Source of the DNA: an uncultured Anaerolineaceae bacterium
GTDB lineage: Bacteria; Chloroflexota; Limnocylindria; Limnocylindrales; CSP1-4
DNA length: 64,000 nucleotides
Direction: 5' to 3'
Assembly (NCBI GenBank): GCA_964518505.1
Contig: CAZFGT010000005.1
Location: 20,358-84,357 of the forward strand
The notes under the pieces were generated by a model that worked only from the letters and a program-made list of their open reading frames with translations, made no database searches and was not told where the DNA came from. This document shows, in pieces, positions 1,041 to 16,655 of the stretch (positions are counted from its first letter, which is position 1; the number at the start of each line of letters is the position of its first letter). The position numbers and the translations under genes were made by a program.

Positions 1041-1732
1041 CGGGCTGTACCCGCGGGCGTGGCCAGGCCGTGCGTGGCGAAGCCGGTCTCGGCGGCCGCA
1101 TCAAGGACGTCGGCGTGCCCCTGGCCGGTCCGGCGCAGGAAGTTGGCCAGGATGCGCGGCCCCTCGGGCGTGAGCACCGACTCGGGGTGGAACTGCACGC
1201 CTTCCAGCGGCAGGGTCCGATGGCGCATGGCCATGACCACACCCTCGGCGGTGCGGCCGGTGACCTCGATGGCCTCAGGCAGGGTGCTCTCGTCGACCGT
1301 CAGCGAGTGGTACCGGGCGGCCGGGAAGGGCGATGGCAGGCCCTCCAGCAGGCCCTGCCCGTCGTGGATGATCTCGCTGGCCTCGCCATGCACCAGGGAC
1401 GGCGCGCGGACGATCGCGGCACCGAAGGCGGCCCCCAGGCACTGGTGGCCCAGGCACACCCCCAGCAGGGGGATGTGCCAAGCAGCGGCCACGTCCACGG
1501 CGGCCACCGAGACGCCCGCCGAGCTGGGCTCGCCGGGACCGGGCGAGATGACGATGCCGGCCAGGCGGTCGTCGAGCGGCCCTTCGCCAGCGGCCGCGTC
1601 GCGGGCCAGGGCCTCCAGCTGCTCCCGGTCCAGGGCGTCGTTGCGTACGACCCGCAGCGTGGCGCCGGCCACCTCGAGCGCCTGCACGAGGTTGAAGGTG
1701 AAGCTGTCGTAGTTGTCGATGACGAGGATCAC
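1037..1732 (-). CDS. trpG: anthranilate synthase component II / glutamine amidotransferase (TrpG/PabA type)
   Basis: 231-aa ORF starting MILVIDNYDSFTFNLVQ, with the catalytic GVCLGHQ Cys motif and the HPES triad region. It overlaps trpE by 4 bp. Confidence 0.85.
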   Translation of the reverse strand: MILVIDNYDSFTFNLVQALEVAGATLRVVRNDALDREQLEALARDAAAGEGPLDDRLAGIVISPGPGEPSSAGVSVAAVDVAAAWHIPLLGVCLGHQCLGAAFGAAIVRAPSLVHGEASEIIHDGQGLLEGLPSPFPAARYHSLTVDESTLPEAIEVTGRTAEGVVMAMRHRTLPLEGVQFHPESVLTPEGPRILANFLRRTGQGHADVLDAAAETGFATHGLATPAGTAR

Positions 1733-3351
1733 GTGGCCACCCCGGCACGGGGCACGTCATCGCCGACGGCGTTCGTCGCACCGGTCGCCTGGGCGGCCGC
1801 CACGAGCGCGCCGCGGATGGCCGCCGCCTTGTGCTCGGTCTCCTCGAACTCGCTGGCGGGGACGCTGCCGGCCACGATCCCCGCCCCGGCGTGGAGGTGC
1901 AGCGCGCCCTCACGCAGGACCGCCGACCGGATGGCGATGGCCGTGTCCAGGTTGCCGTCATAACCCAGGTAGCCGACGGCCCCGCCGTAGATGCCGCGGC
2001 GCTCCCGCTCCAGCTGGGCGATGAGCTGCATCGCCCGCACCTTGGGGGCGCCGGAAAGCGTGCCGGCCGGGAAGACGCTGCGCAGCGCGTCCAGGGCGTC
2101 CAATCCCGGGCGCAGCCGGCCCTCCACGTGGCTCACCAGGTGCAGCACGTGGCTGTAGCGCTCGACCTCCATGTAGCGCGTCACGGCCACCGAGCCGGCC
2201 ACCGCCACGCGGCCCAGGTCGTTGCGGCCCAGGTCGACGAGCATGACGTGCTCGGCCCGCTCCTTGGGGTCGCGTTGCAGCTCGTCGGCGATGCGCTCGT
2301 CCTCGCGCTCGTCGCCGCCCCGTGGCCGCGTCCCGGCGATGGGATGCGTGGTCAGCGCGTCACCCTCCACGCGCAGGAGGAGCTCGGGGCTGGCGCCCAC
2401 GACCTCGAAGGCCGGGTGGCGCACGTAGAAGAGGTACGGGCTGGGGTTGATGCGCCGCAGCGCTCGGTAGAGGTCCAGGCCACCCAGCGGCCTGCCATCG
2501 GGACGCACGGGGAGCGCCATCGTCTGGCGGCGGGCGAGCACGATCTGGATCGCCTCACCGGCCGCGATGGCCTGCTTGGCCGCCACGACCGCCGCCTCGT
2601 ACGCCTCCCGGCTCAGGCTCGCCTCCACGGCCGCCTGCGGAGCCGCTGCCGGCTGGGCGGGCGCGGCGCCCGGCGTGGTCCGCGCCACAGCCACCTCCAG
2701 CTCCGACCGACTCGGTCGCTGCGTCCGCTCCAGGGCCTCGAAGATGGCCCGCTCGGCGATGCGGTAGCGGCCCTCCAGGTCTGGCGCGTCCGTATGGAGC
2801 GAGGCGATCGCCGAGAGGGTCTGGGTCAGGTGGTCGAAGACCAGCACGAGGTCGGTCTCCAGGAAGGCCGCCAGCGGCACCCCGACCGGATCCTTGCTCG
2901 GCTGGGGCACCGGCTCGAAGCTGCCGACCGCGTCGTAGGCCAGGGCGCCCACCGCTCCGCCCGTGAAGCGAGGCATCTCGTTGGTGGGGGCGACGCGGCG
3001 GCGGGGCACGAAGGCGCGCAGGGCAGCCAGCGGATCCGTCGCCTCGCCGCTGGTCGCGGGCAGGTCGGGGCTGTAGGCATCGACGGAGAGCGGGCGCGTG
3101 ACGATGCGCGCCGTCGTGCCCGAGACCTCCAGCATGCGGCGCGGCGAGACGCCAAGGAACGAATAACGCCCCACGCGCTCGCCGCCCTCGACCGACTCGA
3201 GGAGGTAGCACGGCCCGCCGTCGTCCAGGCGCAGGAGGGCGCCCATGGGCGTCTCCAGGTCTGCCGCCCGGGACGCGCGCAGCAGGATCGTGTCGGCGCT
3301 GCCGGCCAGGCGGCGCGCCTCGGTGATGCTCAGCGGGTCGGGCAGGGCCAT
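1729..3351 (-). CDS. trpE: anthranilate synthase component I TrpE (start trimmed to MALPDPL, internal Met 83 of the 622-aa track ORF)
   Basis: TrpE hallmarks are present: LLESVEGGE, the chorismate-binding C-terminal region GGAVGYLGYDG, and AIAIRSAV. The upstream 82 codons are Arg/Pro-rich GC-shadow sequence. An RBS-like GAGGGAA lies upstream of the ATG at 3351. Confidence 0.85.
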   Translation of the reverse strand: MALPDPLSITEARRLAGSADTILLRASRAADLETPMGALLRLDDGGPCYLLESVEGGERVGRYSFLGVSPRRMLEVSGTTARIVTRPLSVDAYSPDLPATSGEATDPLAALRAFVPRRRVAPTNEMPRFTGGAVGALAYDAVGSFEPVPQPSKDPVGVPLAAFLETDLVLVFDHLTQTLSAIASLHTDAPDLEGRYRIAERAIFEALERTQRPSRSELEVAVARTTPGAAPAQPAAAPQAAVEASLSREAYEAAVVAAKQAIAAGEAIQIVLARRQTMALPVRPDGRPLGGLDLYRALRRINPSPYLFYVRHPAFEVVGASPELLLRVEGDALTTHPIAGTRPRGGDEREDERIADELQRDPKERAEHVMLVDLGRNDLGRVAVAGSVAVTRYMEVERYSHVLHLVSHVEGRLRPGLDALDALRSVFPAGTLSGAPKVRAMQLIAQLERERRGIYGGAVGYLGYDGNLDTAIAIRSAVLREGALHLHAGAGIVAGSVPASEFEETEHKAAAIRGALVAAAQATGATNAVGDDVPRAGVAT

Positions 3352-3395
3352 GGTGCTGCTGGTTCCCTCATCTCGCCCGGGTTCGGTCCCGGAAT

Positions 3396-3460
3396 CACGA
3401 CGACCTTTCGTCCATCCGGGACGAAAGGTCGTGCCTTCCGCGGTGCCACCCGCCTTCGAC
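3396..3460 (-). promoter_or_regulatory. putative T-box leader element (Trp-type) with terminator/sequestrator hairpin, upstream of trpE
   Basis: Minus-strand RNA reads GGCGGGUGGCACCGCGG (plus 3438-3454), matching the T-box core consensus AGGGUGGNACCGCG. The UGGC bulge can pair with a tRNA 3' end GCCA, which is the tRNA-Trp G73 discriminator. A 14-bp perfect hairpin with loop AUCCG follows immediately (plus 3400-3432). Confidence 0.5.
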
Positions 3461-3738
3461 GACCGGTCCGGTCGTCGCGCTCTGCCGACGGACCGCGCGG
3501 CGGTCGATCGGTGCTGCCCTGATAACGCTGGCGCTCTGCGCCGGAGCCTAGTCGGCGGGGGTTGGCCCGTCGTTCGGTCCGGGGCTCCCGGGTCCATTCA
3601 CCGCCGCCCTCGCTCCGGCTCGCACCAGCCGCCGGTTCTCTTGGCCGAGGATCGTCGGGTACTCGTCCCGATCACAGCCGTCTTCAGTTGTGGAGCGCGA
3701 GTCTAGGCGGGCCCCCGAAGGGTGTCAACGACGGGCGC

Positions 3739-5058
3739 TCAGGGCCGGCGCATGACGTAGCTCTGGGTCGTGCCGTTGGCCGCGGTCGTCTCGTACATCA
3801 CGAGCAGCGCGCCGGTGGCCGTGTCCAGCTTGATCACCGGCGACTGGACCTCAGCGGGCAGGAGCATGGTCTGGACCCAAGGACCGCCAGCCGGGCCCAT
3901 GAAGTAGGCGAACCCCTCGACGCGTGGGGCGTCGTAGTCGTCGCTGCCGCTGACCACCGCATCCACCGTGCCCGTGCTCGTGTCCACGGTCAGGGACGCC
4001 TCGCCGACGAGTGGGGTAAGCCGGCTTGTGTGCCACGCGCCACCTGCGTCGGTGCTGAAGTAGGTCCCGTCGGTGGGCTCGGCATCGCGGATGACACAGC
4101 CGCCCGGCTCAGGGCTGCGGTTCCACAGCAGGTATGCAGCGTCGCCCTTGCCGAGGACCATGACGGGGTCCCAGCCCTCCTCGCTGCCGGCGACCTGGGA
4201 GGTCGCGAAGCCGGACCCGGTGAAGGTCCCGAACGTGATCCCGCCATCGCCGGGCTCATAGGCCACGCGGGCCTTGCCGTCGTCACCGACGCGCAGGGCG
4301 GGCACCGACATGCCGGTGAGGTCGGCGATCGTGTAGCGGTGAGCGGTCGAACCGTGCACCGTCTCGTAGACCATGCTCGCCCCGCCATGGACGGCGACAT
4401 GGATGGTGCCGACGACGACGCGCAGGGCGTCGAGGTGCTCACCGCTCTTGCCGATCTGGCGGGCCACCGACCAGGCACCGCCCGCCAGCGCCCTGCTGCG
4501 ATACCAGACGCTCACATCGCTGAAACCATCGGAGCCGCAACCCTCCTCCGGGACGACCCGCGTGTAGGCCACGTAGAGCGTGCTCCCGTCGACGGCCAGC
4601 TGCGGATCCAGGTCCTTCTCACCAGCCGGCAGCGGCATGCTGCTGGTGGCCCACGTGGGGCTGCCGGCCCTGGACTCCGTGAGGCGGATCAGGCCGTCGC
4701 AGGAATAGGCCGCATGGTCGCCGCTGGCGGCATCGATGGCCACCACGAGCGCCGACTCAGCGTACGTGTCGCATTTGAGCGCCGGCCCGACCGCCTGCGG
4801 CGCGGACCAGCCCATCGGCGGGAGGCTCGGCGTACTGCTGGGGGCCGGGGTGTCGGTCGGCGCGGGTGACGTGGTGGCCGTGGCGGACGGGGCCGCCGTG
4901 GCCGATGGGGATGGGCTCGCGGTGGGCACGGCCGTGGGGCTCGCCGTCGGCGTGCTGGTGGCCGTCGCGCTGCAGCCTGCCATCACCGCGGCCATCGCGA
5001 GGGTGCTCATCGCGCGCGTCACGCGCCGCGGCAGCCGCGCCGCTCCCGTCCCGTTCAT
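3739..5058 (-). CDS. secreted lipoprotein; Ala/Pro/Thr/Ser-rich linker then a repeat-containing (beta-propeller/BNR-like) domain, function unknown
   Basis: Signal peptide with lipobox (LAMAAVMAGCSAT). The linker is TASPTAVPTASPSPSATAAPSATATTSPAPTDTPAPSSTP. Repeated aromatic blade-like motifs follow (LYVAYTR, ARVAYEP, AYLLWNR). Confidence 0.55.
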   Translation of the reverse strand: MNGTGAARLPRRVTRAMSTLAMAAVMAGCSATATSTPTASPTAVPTASPSPSATAAPSATATTSPAPTDTPAPSSTPSLPPMGWSAPQAVGPALKCDTYAESALVVAIDAASGDHAAYSCDGLIRLTESRAGSPTWATSSMPLPAGEKDLDPQLAVDGSTLYVAYTRVVPEEGCGSDGFSDVSVWYRSRALAGGAWSVARQIGKSGEHLDALRVVVGTIHVAVHGGASMVYETVHGSTAHRYTIADLTGMSVPALRVGDDGKARVAYEPGDGGITFGTFTGSGFATSQVAGSEEGWDPVMVLGKGDAAYLLWNRSPEPGGCVIRDAEPTDGTYFSTDAGGAWHTSRLTPLVGEASLTVDTSTGTVDAVVSGSDDYDAPRVEGFAYFMGPAGGPWVQTMLLPAEVQSPVIKLDTATGALLVMYETTAANGTTQSYVMRRP

Positions 5059-5165
5059 CCCGACCTCCCGACCGCCCGCCGGTCCGGCTGATGCCGGGCT
5101 CAGGGGGCCTTCACGGGAATAGACGCGCGGCCCGTGCCAGATGGTTCACCACGCACGGAGCGGCC

Positions 5166-6196
5166 TCAGGAGGCGGCCGTGGGGGTCAGCTCGCTGGGCG
5201 TGCTCCACGAGTGCAGCGTGTGCATGTAGTTGGCCCGGTCATAGGCCCCGGGATCGGCCACCGCGGTCTGGCTGGCACTGCCCCGCAGCTGGCCGACCGA
5301 CTCGTACTCGTGGTCGGCCATCCACGACCGCAGTTCGGCCTCCACGATGCGGACGTGTTCCGGCCCTTCGTGCAGGAGCGCCGAGGTCATCATGGCCACG
5401 TCGGCGCCGACCATGAGGGCCTTGAGGGCGTCGGTGCCCGAGTGGATCCCAGAAGTCGCAGCCAGCCCGACGCCGGGCCCCAGCTGCGGTCGCAGGACGC
5501 CGATCCAACGGAGTGGCAGGCGCAGTTCCCAGGAGCGGCTCAGCTCGACGCGGTTGACCACCTCGAGCGCATCCAGGTCCAGGTCCGGCTGATAGAAGCG
5601 GTTGAAGAGGACGAGCCCGTCGGCGCCCTGGGCGACGACACGGGCGGCGAAGTCAGCCATCGCCGTGTAGTACGGGCTGAGCTTGACGGCGAGGGGGATC
5701 GTCACCGCTGCCCGGACCGCAGCGATGAGGGCCAGGTCCGCCGCCTCCATGGCGGCCGCACCACGGGCGGGATCCGTGGCCAGACGGTAGACGTTGAGCT
5801 CGAGGCCATCGGCGCCGGCGTCGGCGATCCGCCTGGCGTAGGCGACCCAGCCGCCGGCCGAAGTGGCGTTGAGGCTGGCGATGACCGGCACGGAGGCCTG
5901 GTGGCGGATGGCTTCGAGGCGGCGCAGGTAGCGCTCGCCGGCATCGGCGAAGCCGTCGACCTCCGGGAAATAGTCGAGTGCCTCGGCGAAGGTTTCGGTC
6001 CCGGTCTCGAGGGACCGGTTGAGCTCGATCTCCTCGTTGAGGATCTCCTCCTCGAAGAGCGACGGGAGCACGATGGCCCCCACACCGGCGTCCTCCAGCC
6101 GGCGGGCCATGGCGACATCGCCGGTCATCGGCGAGGCCGACGCGACGAGCGGTGAGCGGAGGTGCAGGCCCAGGTAGTCGGTACGCAGGTCGATGC

Positions 6197-6200
<4 letters not shown>
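5166..6200 (-). CDS. dihydroorotate dehydrogenase-like / FMN-dependent TIM-barrel oxidoreductase family protein
   Basis: 344-aa ORF with DHOD-family features (VASASPMTGD, LELNVYRL, KLSPY, GIHSGTDALKALMVGADVAMMTSAL). Its start overlaps the PFOR stop by 4 bp. Confidence 0.7.
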
Positions 6201-9892
<3,692 letters not shown>

Positions 9893-10171
9893 CCGGCCTT
9901 TCGTATCCGTCGAGCGTGACTCGTGCACGGTCAGCTTCGGGCCTGCCGACGGGCGCCACCATTGTCGTTCGGCTCACCATCCGGTGCCCATCGGCCCCTT
10001 TCGGACCCCAGCGCGCACGGTCAGACGGGCGCGGTCCCTTGGTCCGGGGCGCGCCCGGCCGGATGGTCGGGTTGCCAAGAGCGGGTCGGCGGGGGTAGGG
10101 TGCGGCAGCCGCCGGGAGCCCGCGGGCCGACGCCGGCAGGCCCTGCGATCCCCGCGAACCGGAGCGACCCG

Positions 10172-12301
10172 ATGTCCGACCAGCGCCCTCGGCAGCCCGG
10201 CGTGCGCGCCGTGCGCCCCCGCTCCAGCGGTCGCCCTCGCCTCACCTTCCGCCTGGCGGCGGTGGCCCTTCTGGGAGCATCCGTCCTCGCCCTGGGCGGA
10301 CCCGGCGCGACGCTCGCCGCGGCCAGCCACGCGGCCGCGCCCGCCCCGACCGTCGAGCAGGCCTCGGCACCCATGCCCAAAGGGCTCACCGGTGAGGTCT
10401 ACGGCTTCCTGCCCTACTGGGAGATCGATAGCGGTACCGACGCGTACCTGCGCTACGACCTCATCACGACCATCGCCCTCTTCGCCGTCTACTACGACGC
10501 GTCCGGCAACCTCAACACGTCGACCCTGCTGGGAAGCGGCCGGGCGGCCCTGATCAGCACCATCGTCCAGCACGCCCACGCCCAGGGCGTGCGGGTGGAC
10601 CTGACGCTGCGCCCGTCGACCGACACGGCCAACGCCAACCAGGCCTTCTTCGCCAACGCGCCCGCCCAGGCGGCCGCCATCGCCAACATGGCCGCCCAGG
10701 TGGCGTCGCTCGGGCTGGACGGCGCGAACATCGACATCGAGTCGCTCTTCAACAGCGACTTCGCGGCGTACGGCGCGTTCGGGGCGGCCCTCCGCGCGGC
10801 GCTTGTGAAGGCGCACACGAGTGCCCGGGTGACCGTCTCCACCAACGCCAACGTGTCGGGCTCCGGCATGGCCGCCCAGGCCATCTCGCACGGGGTCGAC
10901 CGGGCTTTCCTGATGGGCTACAACTACCGCGGCTCCACAAGCAGCCCGGTCGGCTCCATCTCGCCGCTCGTGAGCTCGGTGGGCGGCCTCAGCCTGAGCT
11001 GGTCGATCGGCCAGTACGACAAGCTGGATGTGCCGCGCAACCGCATCATCCTTGGCCTGCCCTACTACGGCATGACCTGGCCGACCACGTCGGGCGTCCT
11101 GCATGCCACCCGCTCCGGCACCGGGGTGGCGTTCTTCCCGACCGACAGCCTGCCCCCGCCGGCCGGCACCACGATCAACTACGACGCGGTCGAACGCTCG
11201 GCCTGGTACGCCACCCAGGACCCGACCACCAAGGCCTGGTCCGAGACGTACTTCGACGATGAGACCTCGCTGCGCGCCAAGTACGGCCTGGCCGTCAACG
11301 ACGGGCTCGCCGGGGTGGGCATGTGGGCCCTTGGCTACGACCGCGGCCAGCCCGGCTACTGGGAGGCGATCGCCTCGACGTTCGGCGTGCTGCGCCTCGC
11401 CGGCGCGGACCGGTACGGCACGGCCGTCGCGGTCTCGGCCAACCTCCTGCAACCCGGCGCCGGCACCATGATCGTGGCCAACGGCCTGGGCTTTGCCGAC
11501 GCCCTCGGCGGGACGGCCGCGGCCGGTCACCTTGGCGGCTCGCTCCTGCTCACGACACCGACCGCCCTGCCGGCGAGCGTCTCGCTGGAGCTGTCGCGTG
11601 TCGGTCCATCCAACGTCATCGTGCTCGGCGGGAAGAGCGTCGTGTCGGACGCCGTCCTGGATGCGATCAAGGCGCGGCTGCCGGACGCGACCGTGATACG
11701 GATCGGCGGGGCGGACCGGTATGCCACCGCCGCGGACCTGTCCCAGGCGGTCTACCCAGGTGGGGCGAGCACGGTCTTCATCGCCTCCGGGGCCGCCTAT
11801 CCCGACGGCCTCGCCGGGGGCGCCGAGGCAGCCAGGCTGGGCGCGCCCCTGCTGCTGAGCGACTCACGAAGCCTCTCGCCGGCGACGTTGACGGAACTGA
11901 AGCGCCTGGCCCCGACCACCGTGTACCTCCTGGGCAGTACGGCCTCCCTCTCGAGCGCGGTCGCCACGGCGGTCAGCGCCGCCGTGCCCCTGGCCACCGT
12001 GGCGCGGCTTGGCGGCGCCGACCGGTACGCCACTTCGGTGGCCATCTCCGGGCTCCAGGGCCCGGGCGTGCCGGTGGTCTACGTCGCCGCCGGCACGAAC
12101 TTCCCCGACGGCCTCAGCGGGTCGGCCGCCGCCGGCGAGCTGGGCGGACCGCTGCTGCTGACGGCGCCCGGCGCCCTGCCCGTGAGCGTGGCCACCGAGC
12201 TCGCGCGCCTCAAGCCGCGGCGGGTCGTCGTCCTGGGCGGCACCAGCGCGGTCAGCAACACGGTCGTGCTGCAGCTGCGGGGGTACCTCGCTCTCCCCTG
12301 A
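10172..12301 (+). CDS. secreted glycoside hydrolase family 18-like domain fused to three cell-wall-binding CWB2 repeats (start trimmed to MSDQRP)
   Basis: Signal peptide RLTFRLAAVALLGASVLALG. The GH18 catalytic region is LGLDGANIDIES, a variant of DGxDxDxE. Three tandem about 100-aa repeats (ADRYGTAVAVS / ADRYATAADLS / ADRYATSVAIS ... FPDGL ... LLL) are typical of PF04122 CWB2. GGAGCG lies upstream of the ATG at 10172. Confidence 0.8.
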   Translation: MSDQRPRQPGVRAVRPRSSGRPRLTFRLAAVALLGASVLALGGPGATLAAASHAAAPAPTVEQASAPMPKGLTGEVYGFLPYWEIDSGTDAYLRYDLITTIALFAVYYDASGNLNTSTLLGSGRAALISTIVQHAHAQGVRVDLTLRPSTDTANANQAFFANAPAQAAAIANMAAQVASLGLDGANIDIESLFNSDFAAYGAFGAALRAALVKAHTSARVTVSTNANVSGSGMAAQAISHGVDRAFLMGYNYRGSTSSPVGSISPLVSSVGGLSLSWSIGQYDKLDVPRNRIILGLPYYGMTWPTTSGVLHATRSGTGVAFFPTDSLPPPAGTTINYDAVERSAWYATQDPTTKAWSETYFDDETSLRAKYGLAVNDGLAGVGMWALGYDRGQPGYWEAIASTFGVLRLAGADRYGTAVAVSANLLQPGAGTMIVANGLGFADALGGTAAAGHLGGSLLLTTPTALPASVSLELSRVGPSNVIVLGGKSVVSDAVLDAIKARLPDATVIRIGGADRYATAADLSQAVYPGGASTVFIASGAAYPDGLAGGAEAARLGAPLLLSDSRSLSPATLTELKRLAPTTVYLLGSTASLSSAVATAVSAAVPLATVARLGGADRYATSVAISGLQGPGVPVVYVAAGTNFPDGLSGSAAAGELGGPLLLTAPGALPVSVATELARLKPRRVVVLGGTSAVSNTVVLQLRGYLALP

Positions 12302-12325
12302 GGGCCCCTGCTATCGTGGCAGGCG

Positions 12326-13096
12326 ATGACCGCAGCGCCGACCGGCACCGCTGGCGAGCAGGACACCGCGGCGACGGGCGCCTCGCGTGACGCTCATGGC
12401 GCGGGCATCGCCGAGCAGATCCGTCGTGACTTCGCCGAGGCGTGGGGCGAGATGGGCGCCGCCTGGGGCGTGCCGCCGTCGGTCGCCCGGGTCCACGGCT
12501 ACATCCTGGCCCATGCGCGCCCGCTCACCGAGCGCGAGGTCCGCGAAGCCCTGGGGCTGAGTCACCGGGCGGCCAGCCTGGCGCTCGCCGAATGCGAGGC
12601 CTGGGGCCTCGTCGAGCGGGTGCCCGACCCGCGGCGCGTCGGCCGGCGCGGGCCAAGTGCGGTCGCCTATGCCAAGGTCGGCGACCACTGGGTGTGGTTC
12701 CAGCGCATCGCCGAGCAGCGCAAGCTGCGTGAGACGGACCCCCTGCTGCCGCTCATCGCGAACGCCGTGCGCGAGGCGGACCGGGTCGCCGCTGGGTCCC
12801 CGCCGGACAGCGAACTGGCCCAGCTGCGGGAATGGCTGACCGAGTTCGAGGGCTTCGTGCGCCTCTTCGACCGCGCCGTGGCCCTCGTCGCCCGCGCCGA
12901 AACGAGCGAACTGGCCCGGGGCTTCGCGGTCCTGGCCCGGCTCTCGGACGACACCCTGGACCGTCTGCTGGGCCTGTTCGGGTCGCTGCCGGAGGAGGAG
13001 CTGGCGCAGACGCTCCAAAGCATCTCCCGCGTCTCGCCCACCACCGCCCGCCGCGTCCTGGGCGCCGCCGCCAGGGTCGCCCGCCTCGGCCGATAG
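12326..13096 (+). CDS. GbsR/MarR-like winged-helix transcriptional regulator
   Basis: 256 aa. The N-terminal region (FAEAWGEMGAAWGVPPSVARVHGYILAHARPLTEREVREALGLSHRAASLALAECEAWGLVERV) resembles GbsR-family HTH regulators. Confidence 0.55.
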   Translation: MTAAPTGTAGEQDTAATGASRDAHGAGIAEQIRRDFAEAWGEMGAAWGVPPSVARVHGYILAHARPLTEREVREALGLSHRAASLALAECEAWGLVERVPDPRRVGRRGPSAVAYAKVGDHWVWFQRIAEQRKLRETDPLLPLIANAVREADRVAAGSPPDSELAQLREWLTEFEGFVRLFDRAVALVARAETSELARGFAVLARLSDDTLDRLLGLFGSLPEEELAQTLQSISRVSPTTARRVLGAAARVARLGR

Positions 13097-13119
13097 CGCC
13101 GCCAGCCGTCGCGGCCGGA

Positions 13120-13207
13120 TGGCGGAGAGGGTGGGATTCGAACCCACGAGGCTTTCGCCCGGCGGTTTTCAAGACCGCTGCCATCAACCACTCGGCCACC
13201 TCTCCGC
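13120..13207 (-). tRNA. tRNA-Ser (anticodon UGA), 88 nt with long variable arm, CCA encoded
   Basis: The minus-strand transcript GCGGAGAGGUGGCCGAGUGGUUGAUGGCAGCGGUCUUGAAAACCGC...GGGUUCGAAUCCCACCCUCUCCGCCA folds as a cloverleaf. Anticodon loop CUUGAAA, T-loop GGUUCGAAUCC, and a long extra arm. Confidence 0.9.
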
Positions 13208-13740: not shown

Positions 13741-15042
13741 CTACGCTCCGATTCGAGCCATCCCCATGCCGTTGCGCAGCACCTCCGGCACGACGACCGA
13801 GCCGTCCGCCTGCTGGTGGACCTCCAGGATCGCCGCCACCGTGCGGGCCAGGGCCAGCCCTGATCCATTGAGCGTGTGGAGGACCTCTGGTCGTGCCCCC
13901 GGCTCCGGCCGCCAGCGGATGTTCATGCGCCGGGCCTGATAGTCGCGGAAGTTGGAGACCGAGCTGACCTCCAGCCAGCGCTCCACGCCGGGCGCCCAGA
14001 CCTCCAGGTCGTACTTCTTGGCCTGCACGAAGCCCATGTCGCCGGTCGCCATCAGCTTCACCCGGTAGGGCAGCTCCAGCCGCTGGAGGACCACCTCCGC
14101 CCGCGCGGTGAGCCATTCCAGCGTGGCGTTGGAGTCCGCCGGGCGCTCGAAGCAGACCATCTCCACCTTGTCGAACTGGTGGACGCGCAGGATGCCGCGG
14201 GTGTCCTTGCCGGCCGCCCCGGCCTCGCGCCGGAAGCACGGCGAATAGGCCACGTAGCGGATGGGCAGCTGGTCCGCCTCGATGATCTCGTCGCGGTGGA
14301 TGTTGGTGACGGGCACTTCGGCGGTCGGCACGAGGTACAGGTCGTCGCGCGTCACGACGTACATGAGGTCTTCCTTGTCGGGGATCTGGCCCGTCCCCCG
14401 AGCCGACGCCTGGTTGACGAGGGCGGGCGGCCAGATCTCGGTCATGCCGTGCTCACGCACATGCAGGCCGACCATGAAATCGATCAGCGCCCGCTGGAGG
14501 GCTGCTCCGGCGGCGCGATAGATGGGGAAGCCCGAGCCGGTCACCTTGGCCCCCGCCTGGAGCGCCAGGATGCCCTGCGCCTCACCGATCTCCCAGTGGG
14601 GCTGCACGACCGAGCCGTCGGCGCGTTGGTGGGGGGCCGGGTCACCCCACGAGCGCACGATGACGCTGGCGTCCTCACCGCCGATGGGGACATCCGGATC
14701 GGCCGGATTGGGGATGCGCAGCAGGAGCTCCTCCAGGTCGTGCTCGGCGGTCGCGATCTGGGTGTCCAGGGCGGCGATCTCGCTGCCGAGCGCGTTCGCT
14801 CGCCGGCGCGTCTCGGCGAGCGTCGGATCGTCCGGCCGCGACCCGCCGCGGATGGCCGCCCCGACCTCCTGGCTGAGGCGGTTGCGCTCGGCCTTTCGCG
14901 CGTCCGCCTCGTTCGTCAGGCGGCGCCGCTCCGCGTCGAGCTGGATAGCCTGATCGACGATGGCCGCATCCTCGCCCTTGTCGAGCGCCCCCTGGCGGAG
15001 GCGCGCGGCGTCCTCGCGAAGCCGCTGCAGACCGACGCTCAT
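13741..15042 (-). CDS. serS: seryl-tRNA synthetase (start trimmed to MSVGLQRL)
   Basis: N-terminal coiled-coil arm, then class II motifs (FRREAGAAGKDTRGILRVHQFDKVE, GSGLALARTVAAILE). GGAG lies 9 nt upstream of the ATG at 15042. The ATG overlaps the stop of the upstream class I LysRS (ATGA). Confidence 0.9.
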   Translation of the reverse strand: MSVGLQRLREDAARLRQGALDKGEDAAIVDQAIQLDAERRRLTNEADARKAERNRLSQEVGAAIRGGSRPDDPTLAETRRRANALGSEIAALDTQIATAEHDLEELLLRIPNPADPDVPIGGEDASVIVRSWGDPAPHQRADGSVVQPHWEIGEAQGILALQAGAKVTGSGFPIYRAAGAALQRALIDFMVGLHVREHGMTEIWPPALVNQASARGTGQIPDKEDLMYVVTRDDLYLVPTAEVPVTNIHRDEIIEADQLPIRYVAYSPCFRREAGAAGKDTRGILRVHQFDKVEMVCFERPADSNATLEWLTARAEVVLQRLELPYRVKLMATGDMGFVQAKKYDLEVWAPGVERWLEVSSVSNFRDYQARRMNIRWRPEPGARPEVLHTLNGSGLALARTVAAILEVHQQADGSVVVPEVLRNGMGMARIGA

Positions 15043-16655
15043 GCCGGTGCTCCGGCCTGGGCGCCGTCGACCGGCCGCCAGCCGGCCGCCTCGCGCAGGC
15101 GGGCCACCACGGCGTCCAGCGGCTGGGCGACCAGCAACCAGCCGGCGCGTGGACCGTTGGGCCGGCCCAGGAACGCGACGTAGACGGCGGCGAAGGCCTT
15201 CCCGGTCGGCAGCGCGCCGTCGTGCGCCACGCGGAAGATGAGGTCCTGCCACGCGTCGCCGGCGGCCGGACGATCCTGCTCGGCGGCCAGAGCCAGGGCG
15301 CCAAGGTAGACCCGCTGGTCGTCGCCGAGCTCGTGCACCTCCGCCGGCAGCTTCGGCTGCACGGCCACCTTGTAGCGGTCGGGTGCCAGACCGGACAGCC
15401 AGGCGCGGGCGACGGCCACGCGCTGTGCCTGGATGGCCCGCTCGGCGTCGTCCAGGGGCGCACCCTTCTCCGCCTCGAGCTGCGCTGACAGGTCCACCCC
15501 GGGCACCTGGACGAGGAGCGCCAGGTGGCGGAAGGCCGGTCGGAAGCGCGCCGCCTCGGCCACCGGATCGGCCTCTGCGTCGACCAGGCTCATGCGAAAG
15601 ATGCGCACCGGGTCGGGTGGCAGCTCGCCGCGCACCTCCCGACCGGCCGCGGCCGCGGCGATGCGGTCGAACTCATCGAACAGGCCGGGGACGGTGTCGC
15701 CCTCCGGGTCGAATTCCAGGTGCTTGCGCGGCTTGTGGCGCAGGAAGAGGAAGCGCAGGAGCTCGGCCGGCAAGAGCTCGGCGATCTCGTGGGCGGCGGC
15801 TCCCGAACCCTTGCTCGTGCTCATCTTCTTGCCCCCGATGGTCAAGAACTCGTAGGGCACGTTGGTCGGTGGTTCGCGCTCGAAGACGCGCCGGCTGATG
15901 GCGTCGGCGCGGTCGCGCGAGCCGCCCTTGGTGGCGAGGTCCTTGCCGCAGCCCTCGATGGTGGCCCCGACCAGGCCCCACCGGGCGGCCCAGTCGACGT
16001 TCCACACCAGCTTGGCCCGGCCACCGAACGGTGAGACGCGGCCGTGGAAGCCGCAGCCGGTGGCCCAGTCGACCAGATCCGCGCGGCACTCGTAGGTCAC
16101 CTCGCGGCCGTCCCACTCGCTGGCGATGGTCGTGCCGCTACGGCCGCAGTTCTCGCAGATGACGCTGATGGGCAGCCAGTGGGCGGGATGGTCGACCGTG
16201 CTGACGGTCCGGTAGATGTCGCGGATGACATCGGCGTGGTCCAGCGCCCGACCGATGTACGGGTCCATGTCGCCGGCCGCATACCGCTCGCTCATCCAGT
16301 AGAGCTCCGGCCGGATGCCCAGGCCCTCGAACGTGCCGAGGAAGAGGCCCACGAAGTGGCGCGCATAGTTGGCCGCGCTGCTGCCGGCCGGGGCGGGGAC
16401 GTGGGCCAGCGGCACACCCATGTAGCGCTCGACAGCGTCAGGCGTCAGGAGCGCCTGGGCGTCCATGGGGTCAAGGTCCTCGACCCCGTAGCGGAACGTG
16501 ACGGGCGTCTCGCGGTCCAGCAGCGCCCGGCGGATCGCGTCGTGCAGCACGACGCCGCGCAGGCTGCCCACATGGACGGTGCCCGACGGCGTCTTGGAGT
16601 CGTTGACGACCTGCGGTCCCTGAGCGTCGGCCGCCAGCTCGTCGGCCCAGTACAC
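15039..16655 (-). CDS. lysK: lysyl-tRNA synthetase, class I (archaeal-type LysRS); start probably the GTG at 16655, with alternative ATG at 16700
   Basis: HIGH-like TPSGTVHVGSLRG and KMSKS-like GKKMSTSKG motifs in a class I LysRS arrangement. The track start at 16700 would overlap greA by 38 bp. A GTG at 16655 has GAGG 8 nt upstream, right after the greA stop. Confidence 0.8.
   Translation of the reverse strand: MYWADELAADAQGPQVVNDSKTPSGTVHVGSLRGVVLHDAIRRALLDRETPVTFRYGVEDLDPMDAQALLTPDAVERYMGVPLAHVPAPAGSSAANYARHFVGLFLGTFEGLGIRPELYWMSERYAAGDMDPYIGRALDHADVIRDIYRTVSTVDHPAHWLPISVICENCGRSGTTIASEWDGREVTYECRADLVDWATGCGFHGRVSPFGGRAKLVWNVDWAARWGLVGATIEGCGKDLATKGGSRDRADAISRRVFEREPPTNVPYEFLTIGGKKMSTSKGSGAAAHEIAELLPAELLRFLFLRHKPRKHLEFDPEGDTVPGLFDEFDRIAAAAAGREVRGELPPDPVRIFRMSLVDAEADPVAEAARFRPAFRHLALLVQVPGVDLSAQLEAEKGAPLDDAERAIQAQRVAVARAWLSGLAPDRYKVAVQPKLPAEVHELGDDQRVYLGALALAAEQDRPAAGDAWQDLIFRVAHDGALPTGKAFAAVYVAFLGRPNGPRAGWLLVAQPLDAVVARLREAAGWRPVDGAQAGAPA

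Follow-up and report, generated by a model that had tools for sequence, protein, structure and literature searches.

The locus studied here raises the question of how the tryptophan biosynthesis genes trpE, trpG, and trpD are regulated in an uncultured, GC-rich lineage of Chloroflexota. These genes lie at one end of the 64-kb stretch of DNA that was analyzed (the window; 71.7% GC), all on the minus strand: trpE encodes anthranilate synthase component I (540 aa; positions 1729-3351; Pfam Chorismate_bind, 1.9e-93, and Anth_synt_I_N, 3.3e-30), trpG a glutamine amidotransferase (1037-1732; Pfam GATase, 4.7e-54), and trpD, which is cut by the window edge, an anthranilate phosphoribosyltransferase (1-1040; Pfam Glycos_transf_3, 1.5e-79). 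On this strand, 387 nt separate the stop codon of the upstream ORF (3739) from the start of trpE (3351). An earlier note had proposed that the leader is a Trp-specific T-box devoid of a Trp-codon leader peptide, and both parts of this proposal were borne out. The leader contains no tandem Trp codons, as UGG triplets were found only at 3627, 3596, 3448, 3414, and 3350, and no TRAP-type repeats, for which 9-11 (G/U)AG triplets are expected and the longest chain found was 2. On the positive side, it matches the Rfam T-box model RF00230 and presents UGG at the specifier position.

Transcription of the leader is predicted to start from a sigma-70-like promoter, TTGACA-17-TAGACT (3700-3728, minus strand), which agrees with the consensus at 10 of 12 positions (0.0 expected in shuffles). 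Both the −35 hexamer TTGACA (3723-3728) and the −10 hexamer TAGACT (3700-3705) were detected by a consensus scan and are further supported by their recurrence: in 65 of the 108 distinct relatives, TTGACN-17/18-TAGACT precedes Stem I by 19-25 nt. The transcription start of trpE would be located near 3693. The likely Shine-Dalgarno (SD) sequence of trpE, GAGGGA (3364-3369, minus strand), an assignment read from the sequence, lies outside the regulatory hairpin. No more than about 10 nt separate the end of the 439-aa upstream ORF from the −35 hexamer (3739-3741 versus 3723-3728), with no terminator in between, and read-through from this ORF into the T-box leader is therefore possible.

The RF00230 model aligned end to end (model positions 1-219) with positions 3414-3684 of the minus strand, with a score of 61.5 bits and an E-value of 5.9e-13 for the region or 6.3e-11 for the whole 64-kb window. 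The resemblance of the leader to a T-box is far beyond chance. The covariance-model scan that had been suggested thus gave a significant E-value, but a score below the curated gathering cut-off of 93, so that the match is seen only when an E-value threshold is applied; a default Rfam gathering scan of the window reported only a tRNA and missed the T-box. The low score is explained in part by a composition bias term of 28.2 bits.

Similar leaders were found in related bacteria. The closest relatives of the TrpE protein (66-80% identical) come from metagenome-assembled genomes (MAGs) labelled Candidatus Limnocylindrales or Chloroflexota, with best matches of 73% to Limnocylindrales MAGs, which assigns the host to Chloroflexota rather than to the actinobacteria. 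RF00230 matched the trpE leader in eight related Chloroflexota (Limnocylindria-like) genome loci. The scores, from 44 to 76 bits, did not reach the gathering score of 93 in any locus, and Rfam scans at the gathering threshold therefore leave the T-boxes of this clade unannotated. In every one of the alignments of these genome relatives, UGG occupied the specifier position. About 119 further loci were gathered from metagenomes by a scan with a T-box core pattern. Among those with enough downstream sequence, nearly all encoded TrpE (56-76% identical), starting 70-200 nt past the T-box sequence; about a dozen contigs ended before any downstream gene. In five loci (L143, L166, L171, L173, and L179), the T-box with its UGG specifier was directly followed by trpD(-trpC) instead of trpE, which points to split trp operons or to a second T-box within the pathway. 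Two others (L088 and L164) carried a Trp T-box without any recognizable TrpE or TrpD in the roughly 2 kb that follow, and may reflect a misassembly or a different regulated gene; tRNA-Ser, tRNA-Arg, and tRNA-Ser genes are present in L164. A T-box core regular expression was also applied to 68 more distant loci, nine of which, from Anaerolineae, Chloroflexia, and one MAG labelled Actinobacteria, had a GAAUGG specifier and a classical U-tract terminator before trpE.

Stem I (3583-3679, minus strand) was delineated by the RF00230 alignment and by covariation, and comprises a basal helix, a K-turn (UGA...GA), a specifier loop, two upper helices, an AG bulge, and a distal loop. Its structure was evaluated by aligning 35 sequences, all sharing less than 90% identity with one another, with MAFFT in a structure-blind manner. 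RNAalifold recovered the T-box Stem I architecture from this alignment, with 13 pairs showing compensatory changes. A direct count on the tested structure, from which two RNAalifold pairs inside the specifier loop (C17-G91 and A19-U89) were excluded, showed that 95.6% of the cells were paired and that 13 of 22 pairs had changed on both sides, in 73 cells. None of 500 shuffles equalled the observed values, and sliding the structure by 1-3 columns reduced pairing to 28-43%. The K-turn GA dinucleotides, the AGUA and AGAGA motifs, the GGUG of the distal loop, and the whole AUGG-CCCG segment were invariant or nearly so among the 35 sequences.

The specifier, GAA-UGG-A (3593-3599, minus strand), was placed by the RF00230 specifier position, with the UGG Trp codon at 3594-3596 and, just 3' of it, the conserved purine A (3593). 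UGG was found at this position in the window and in all 119 relatives whose Stem I could be read, and was followed by a purine in most of them. The specifier codon is therefore found within the Stem I specifier loop, but not at the site that had been suggested for it. The segment proposed as the specifier region, CAAGAGAACCGGCGGCUGGU, is indeed present at 3624-3643, but a specifier role was not borne out: in the RF00230 alignment, it falls on the AG bulge (AGAGA) and on the distal loop (GGCUGGUGCGA), and the UGG that it contains lies in a motif matching the Rfam consensus UUGGUG. Its distance from the T-box sequence was also misjudged, being about 175-190 nt rather than about 100 nt. The AG bulge, CCAAGAGA (3637-3644, minus strand), contains an AGAGA motif that is invariant in the family (columns A41-A45), and the distal loop, GGCUGGUGCGA (3620-3630, minus strand), aligns to the RF00230 consensus GgUUGGUGaaA. 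In T-boxes, the AG bulge and the distal loop of Stem I form the platform that contacts the tRNA elbow.

Downstream of Stem I, the RF00230 alignment identified Stem II (3541-3582, minus strand), with GAAC...A(G/C)UA internal-loop motifs, a variable apical hairpin, and basal pairs that were invariant in 24 relatives, and a Stem IIA/B region (3506-3540, minus strand) including an F-box-like GCGUUA. A GGCGC-AGA-GCGCC element of the latter region was conserved among relatives, and its candidate pseudoknot, in which the loop GCGCC could pair with a downstream GGC(A)GC, comprises only invariant columns, so that no covariation test of the Stem IIA/B region is available.

Between Stem IIA/B and Stem III, RNAalifold detected an extra linker helix, CCGAUCGACCGC...GCGGUCCGUCGG (3485-3511, minus strand), without a counterpart in the Rfam consensus. 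It pairs alignment columns 105-113 with 152-160, and two of its pairs had changed on both sides, in nine and eight sequences, respectively. Inspection by eye of trpE T-boxes from Anaerolineae (L014, L017, and L027) revealed a helix at the same linker position, formed by GGUAU/GUACC versus CCGAU/GUCGG in the clade. The GC hairpin that had been noticed upstream of the T-box sequence at 3457-3477 is real and corresponds to Stem III (minus strand), which was identified by the RF00230 alignment and by folding as an 8-bp hairpin with a 5-nt loop; it is conserved in relatives as a hairpin that varies in sequence and length, with two compensatory cases. A long-range pairing of GCCUCC with the GGGUGG of the T-box, also proposed by RNAalifold, was discarded as an artefact, since Stem I was absent from the alignment used.

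The near-consensus T-box core reported at 3438-3454 was confirmed: the RF00230 alignment located the T-box sequence GGGUGGCACCGCGG at 3438-3451 (minus strand), the wider interval including three more 5' bases. The antiterminator (3417-3452, minus strand), likewise taken from the RF00230 alignment, consists of helix A1 (CGGG/CCCG), a 7-nt bulge UGGCACC (3442-3448), and helix A2 (GCGGAAGG/CCUUUCGU), and has a folding energy of −13.3 kcal/mol. Helix A2 is conserved among relatives, with one compensatory case. Covariation can hardly be tested in the antiterminator, the 5' arm of the terminator, the base of Stem II, or Stem IIA, since all of them are invariant, and part of this invariance was imposed by the T-box core pattern used in the search. 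The leader carries all testable structural features of the T-box family.

The UGGC at the start of the bulge had been considered suitable for a tRNA with G73, and its C indeed fits the rule that bacterial tRNA-Trp has G73 (PMC12135181). In the bulge, 120 sequences have UGGC and nine have UGGU. The latter variant agrees with a known G-U exception, UGGU being found opposite G73 in 46% of Trp T-boxes (TBDB preprint). ARAGORN detected no tRNA-Trp gene in the window or in 199 related loci, where its hits were almost all tRNA-Ser(UGA), with one tRNA-Gly, one tRNA-Arg, and one unassigned tRNA. That the host tRNA-Trp has the anticodon CCA and G73 is assumed here from what holds for bacteria in general.

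The T-box sequence is followed by a perfect hairpin of 14 bp with a 5-nt loop (3400-3432, minus strand), which folds at −23.7 kcal/mol. Its 5' arm (3419-3432) overlaps the loop and the 3' strand of the antiterminator. As the two structures share at least 10 nt (3419-3428), they are mutually exclusive, and these common nucleotides support the alternation between the hairpin and an antiterminator built on the T-box bases that had been put forward as a check. The folding energies of −13.3 and −23.7 kcal/mol are in line with the averages of −7.4 kcal/mol for antiterminators and −19.5 kcal/mol for terminators (TBDB preprint). An equivalent hairpin was present in the 3' domains of all 121 distinct relatives, with a mean energy of −18.4 kcal/mol. 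The 5' arm of this hairpin is invariant because it is used by both the terminator and the antiterminator; the 3' arm varies yet remains complementary.

Comparison with relatives defined the 10 nt that follow the hairpin, CGUGAUUCCG (3390-3399, minus strand), as a degenerate U-tract with three U residues. The corresponding 10 nt in relatives contain a mean of 5.7 U, as compared with 14% T genome-wide, and have the consensus UUCUUGAUUC, which resembles the UUUUUUGUAUUCC tails of lower-GC Chloroflexota relatives. Among the 121 relatives, the window has one of the U-poorest tails and the strongest hairpin. A consensus terminator scan of the window leader called no intrinsic terminator. Owing to this result and to the U-poor tail, efficient intrinsic termination in this organism is uncertain. 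We also observed that a UGAUUC motif after the hairpin (3390-3399; L001-L199) is conserved to a higher degree than a mere U-tract would require. A further small hairpin, CCGGGACCGAACCCGG (3377-3392, minus strand), is found between this tail and the SD of trpE, and a similar one was seen in some relatives (L010, L103, L157, and L177), not in all.

The distance between the end of the hairpin and the start codon is 48 nt in the window and varies from 19 to 145 nt across 111 relatives (median 43). The SD was never found inside the hairpin across these 111 relatives, and that of the window (3364-3369) is located 31 nt beyond it and is not paired with it. The position of the SD outside the hairpin, at a variable distance, together with the U-rich tails of relatives, argues for transcription attenuation over SD sequestration. 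Thus, the hairpin announced at 3400-3432 exists, and of the two roles suggested for it, terminator or sequestrator, the comparative data favour the terminator.

Judging from the sequence and its comparison with relatives, the leader of trpE-trpG-trpD is likely to be a canonical, full-length tRNA-Trp T-box riboswitch that most probably acts by transcription attenuation. The promoter would initiate synthesis of a leader in which the Stem I specifier loop offers UGG (3594-3596) to the CCA anticodon of tRNA-Trp, while the AG bulge and the distal loop would dock the tRNA elbow. When tRNA-Trp is uncharged, its free 3' end, G73-C-C-A, could pair with the UGGC of the 7-nt bulge (3442-3448); this pairing would stabilize the weaker antiterminator (3417-3452), allowing RNA polymerase to read into trpEGD. 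When tRNA-Trp is charged, the antiterminator would not be stabilized, the much stronger 14-bp hairpin (3400-3432) would form from the common nucleotides, and transcription would stop at the degenerate U-tract (3390-3399). In this scheme, tRNA binding, the sequence of the host's own tRNA-Trp, and termination itself are what we infer.

The properties of the tail leave some room for other modes of control. An unlikely one is that this lineage has a T-box free of a classical intrinsic terminator, in which the strong hairpin (−24 kcal/mol) and the U-poor, conserved ...UGAUUC... tail would stop or pause the polymerase without a U-tract or with the aid of a factor or, alternatively, would serve the control of mRNA stability or translation; the linker helix could then add a contact or a folding checkpoint absent from the T-boxes studied so far.

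It is unlikely that the leader is a Trp T-box acting on translation or mRNA fate, with the 14-bp hairpin working as a sequestrator, causing a pause or roadblock, or signalling processing. The three U residues in 10 nt, the failure of the scan to call an intrinsic terminator in the window leader, the purine-rich 3' arm of the hairpin (GAAAGG), and the second small hairpin between the terminator and the SD (3377-3392) would be compatible with such a function, and translational T-boxes exist in high-GC bacteria (TBDB preprint). However, 31-48 nt separate the hairpin from the SD (3364-3369) and the AUG, neither of which is paired with it, and a distance from hairpin to start that ranges from 19 to 145 nt in 111 relatives is unlike that of a conserved SD-sequestering helix. 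Moreover, the tails of relatives are strongly enriched in U, those of lower-GC Chloroflexota being classical U-tracts. We rejected the idea that NUGAUUC, conserved in the tail, marks the start of a short regulatory ORF with an SD in the 3' arm of the hairpin, as such ORFs occur in frames 0, 1, or 2 and span from 3 to more than 70 codons, with no consistent frame or length.

Another reading concerns the frame of the specifier. Shifting the UGG frame within GAAUGGACC would yield AUG (Met) or GGA (Gly), and such −1 and +1 frames are considered by TBDB; both triplets are as invariant as UGG, because they overlap it. A T-box of either specificity is nevertheless very improbable, since the covariance-model alignment sets UGG and the conserved purine at the canonical position, and every identifiable downstream gene, trpE or trpD, belongs to tryptophan biosynthesis. 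The bulge C also fits the G73 of tRNA-Trp, and would be mismatched with both A73 of the bacterial elongator tRNA-Met and U73 of tRNA-Gly.

Finally, there is next to no chance that the leader does not sense tRNA at all and instead relies on a Trp leader peptide or a TRAP-like protein, or resembles a T-box by accident of its GC-rich sequence: in spite of the score below the Rfam gathering cut-off and its large bias term (28.2 bits), this reading is effectively refuted by the full-length match to the model (E-value of 6e-11 for the window), the covarying Stem I, the retention of every T-box motif in more than 120 orthologous leaders, and the lack in the leader of tandem Trp codons and of any (G/U)AG chain longer than 2.

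The region upstream of the leader was also inspected. A tRNA-Ser(UGA) gene (13120-13205, minus strand) is located about 9.4 kb upstream of the trpE T-box in the window; this distance is only 0.7-1.7 kb in L002, L005, and L007, the three genome relatives that were examined, and a tRNA-Ser(UGA) gene is present in about 40 of the other loci. The intervening DNA of the window comprises the ORF of 439 aa, which matched nothing in Pfam (3739-5058), and genes for a DHO_dh-like protein (5166-6200), for a pyruvate:ferredoxin oxidoreductase (6197-9928), and, on the plus strand, for a GH18 protein carrying CWB2 repeats (9923-12301). This arrangement suggests that the DNA between the T-box and tRNA-Ser (3739-13120) results from an insertion or a rearrangement. 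The tRNA-Ser gene adjoins a seryl-tRNA synthetase gene (13741-15252, minus strand), before which no T-box was detected at E ≤ 0.01.

The main value of these results lies in annotation, as the T-box would account for the regulation of trpEGD in an uncultured Chloroflexota lineage of high GC content, and a whole clade of T-boxes (44-76 bits) is left unannotated by routine scans at a score of 93. The collection offers structure-function studies more than 120 natural variants of a single Trp T-box. It also forms a natural series in which the U-tract of the terminator erodes as GC content rises, and which could inform studies of intrinsic termination in high-GC bacteria.

The view that T-box control of trp genes is "only patchily known" in high-GC lineages was overstated, as T-boxes upstream of trpE and of a trpB-like gene were published for Chloroflexi (Dehalococcoides) in 2008 (Wels et al., PMC2494555), and Chloroflexi have repeatedly been named among T-box-bearing lineages (PMC3766115; TBDB preprint). 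The present leader shares with the Trp T-boxes of Dehalococcoides and Firmicutes the trpE target, the UGG specifier, a UGGN bulge reading G73, the terminator/antiterminator switch, and the succession of Stem I (K-turn, specifier loop, AG bulge, and distal loop), Stem II, Stem IIA/B, Stem III, and the T-box sequence. It differs from them by its host, which belongs to another class (Limnocylindria-like) and has a GC content of 72%, by an RF00230 score below the gathering cut-off, by the extra covarying helix between Stem IIA/B and Stem III, and by an eroded U-tract, which reads UUCUUGAUUC in the clade and CGUGAUUCC in the window. A single T-box precedes trpE here, whereas tandem T-boxes are found before trpE in different bacilli (PMC2494555).

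The resemblance extends to T-boxes that control other genes. Like this leader, the glyQS and tyrS leaders of Bacillus subtilis have a specifier laid out as GAA-codon-purine, AGUA/GAA S-turn motifs, a UGGNACC bulge of 7 nt, and a G-U pair closing helix A2. They differ in their Gly or Tyr specificity, in preceding aminoacyl-tRNA synthetase genes, in being AU-rich, and in their strong U-tracts; moreover, glyQS has neither Stem II nor Stem IIA/B. In the translational ileS T-boxes of Actinobacteria, Stem I is shortened and devoid of the distal platform, unlike the full-length Stem I described here. These T-boxes also occur in high-GC genomes and read the tRNA 3' end with the same antiterminator-like bulge, but they sequester the ribosome-binding site in the alternative helix (TBDB preprint), whereas the SD of trpE lies well outside the hairpin. 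In light of these comparisons, a T-box before trpE in Chloroflexota is already known and our data leave the knowledge of T-box mechanism and distribution unchanged; what is modestly new is the occurrence of sub-threshold Rfam scores throughout a clade, the extra covarying helix, and the eroded U-tract.
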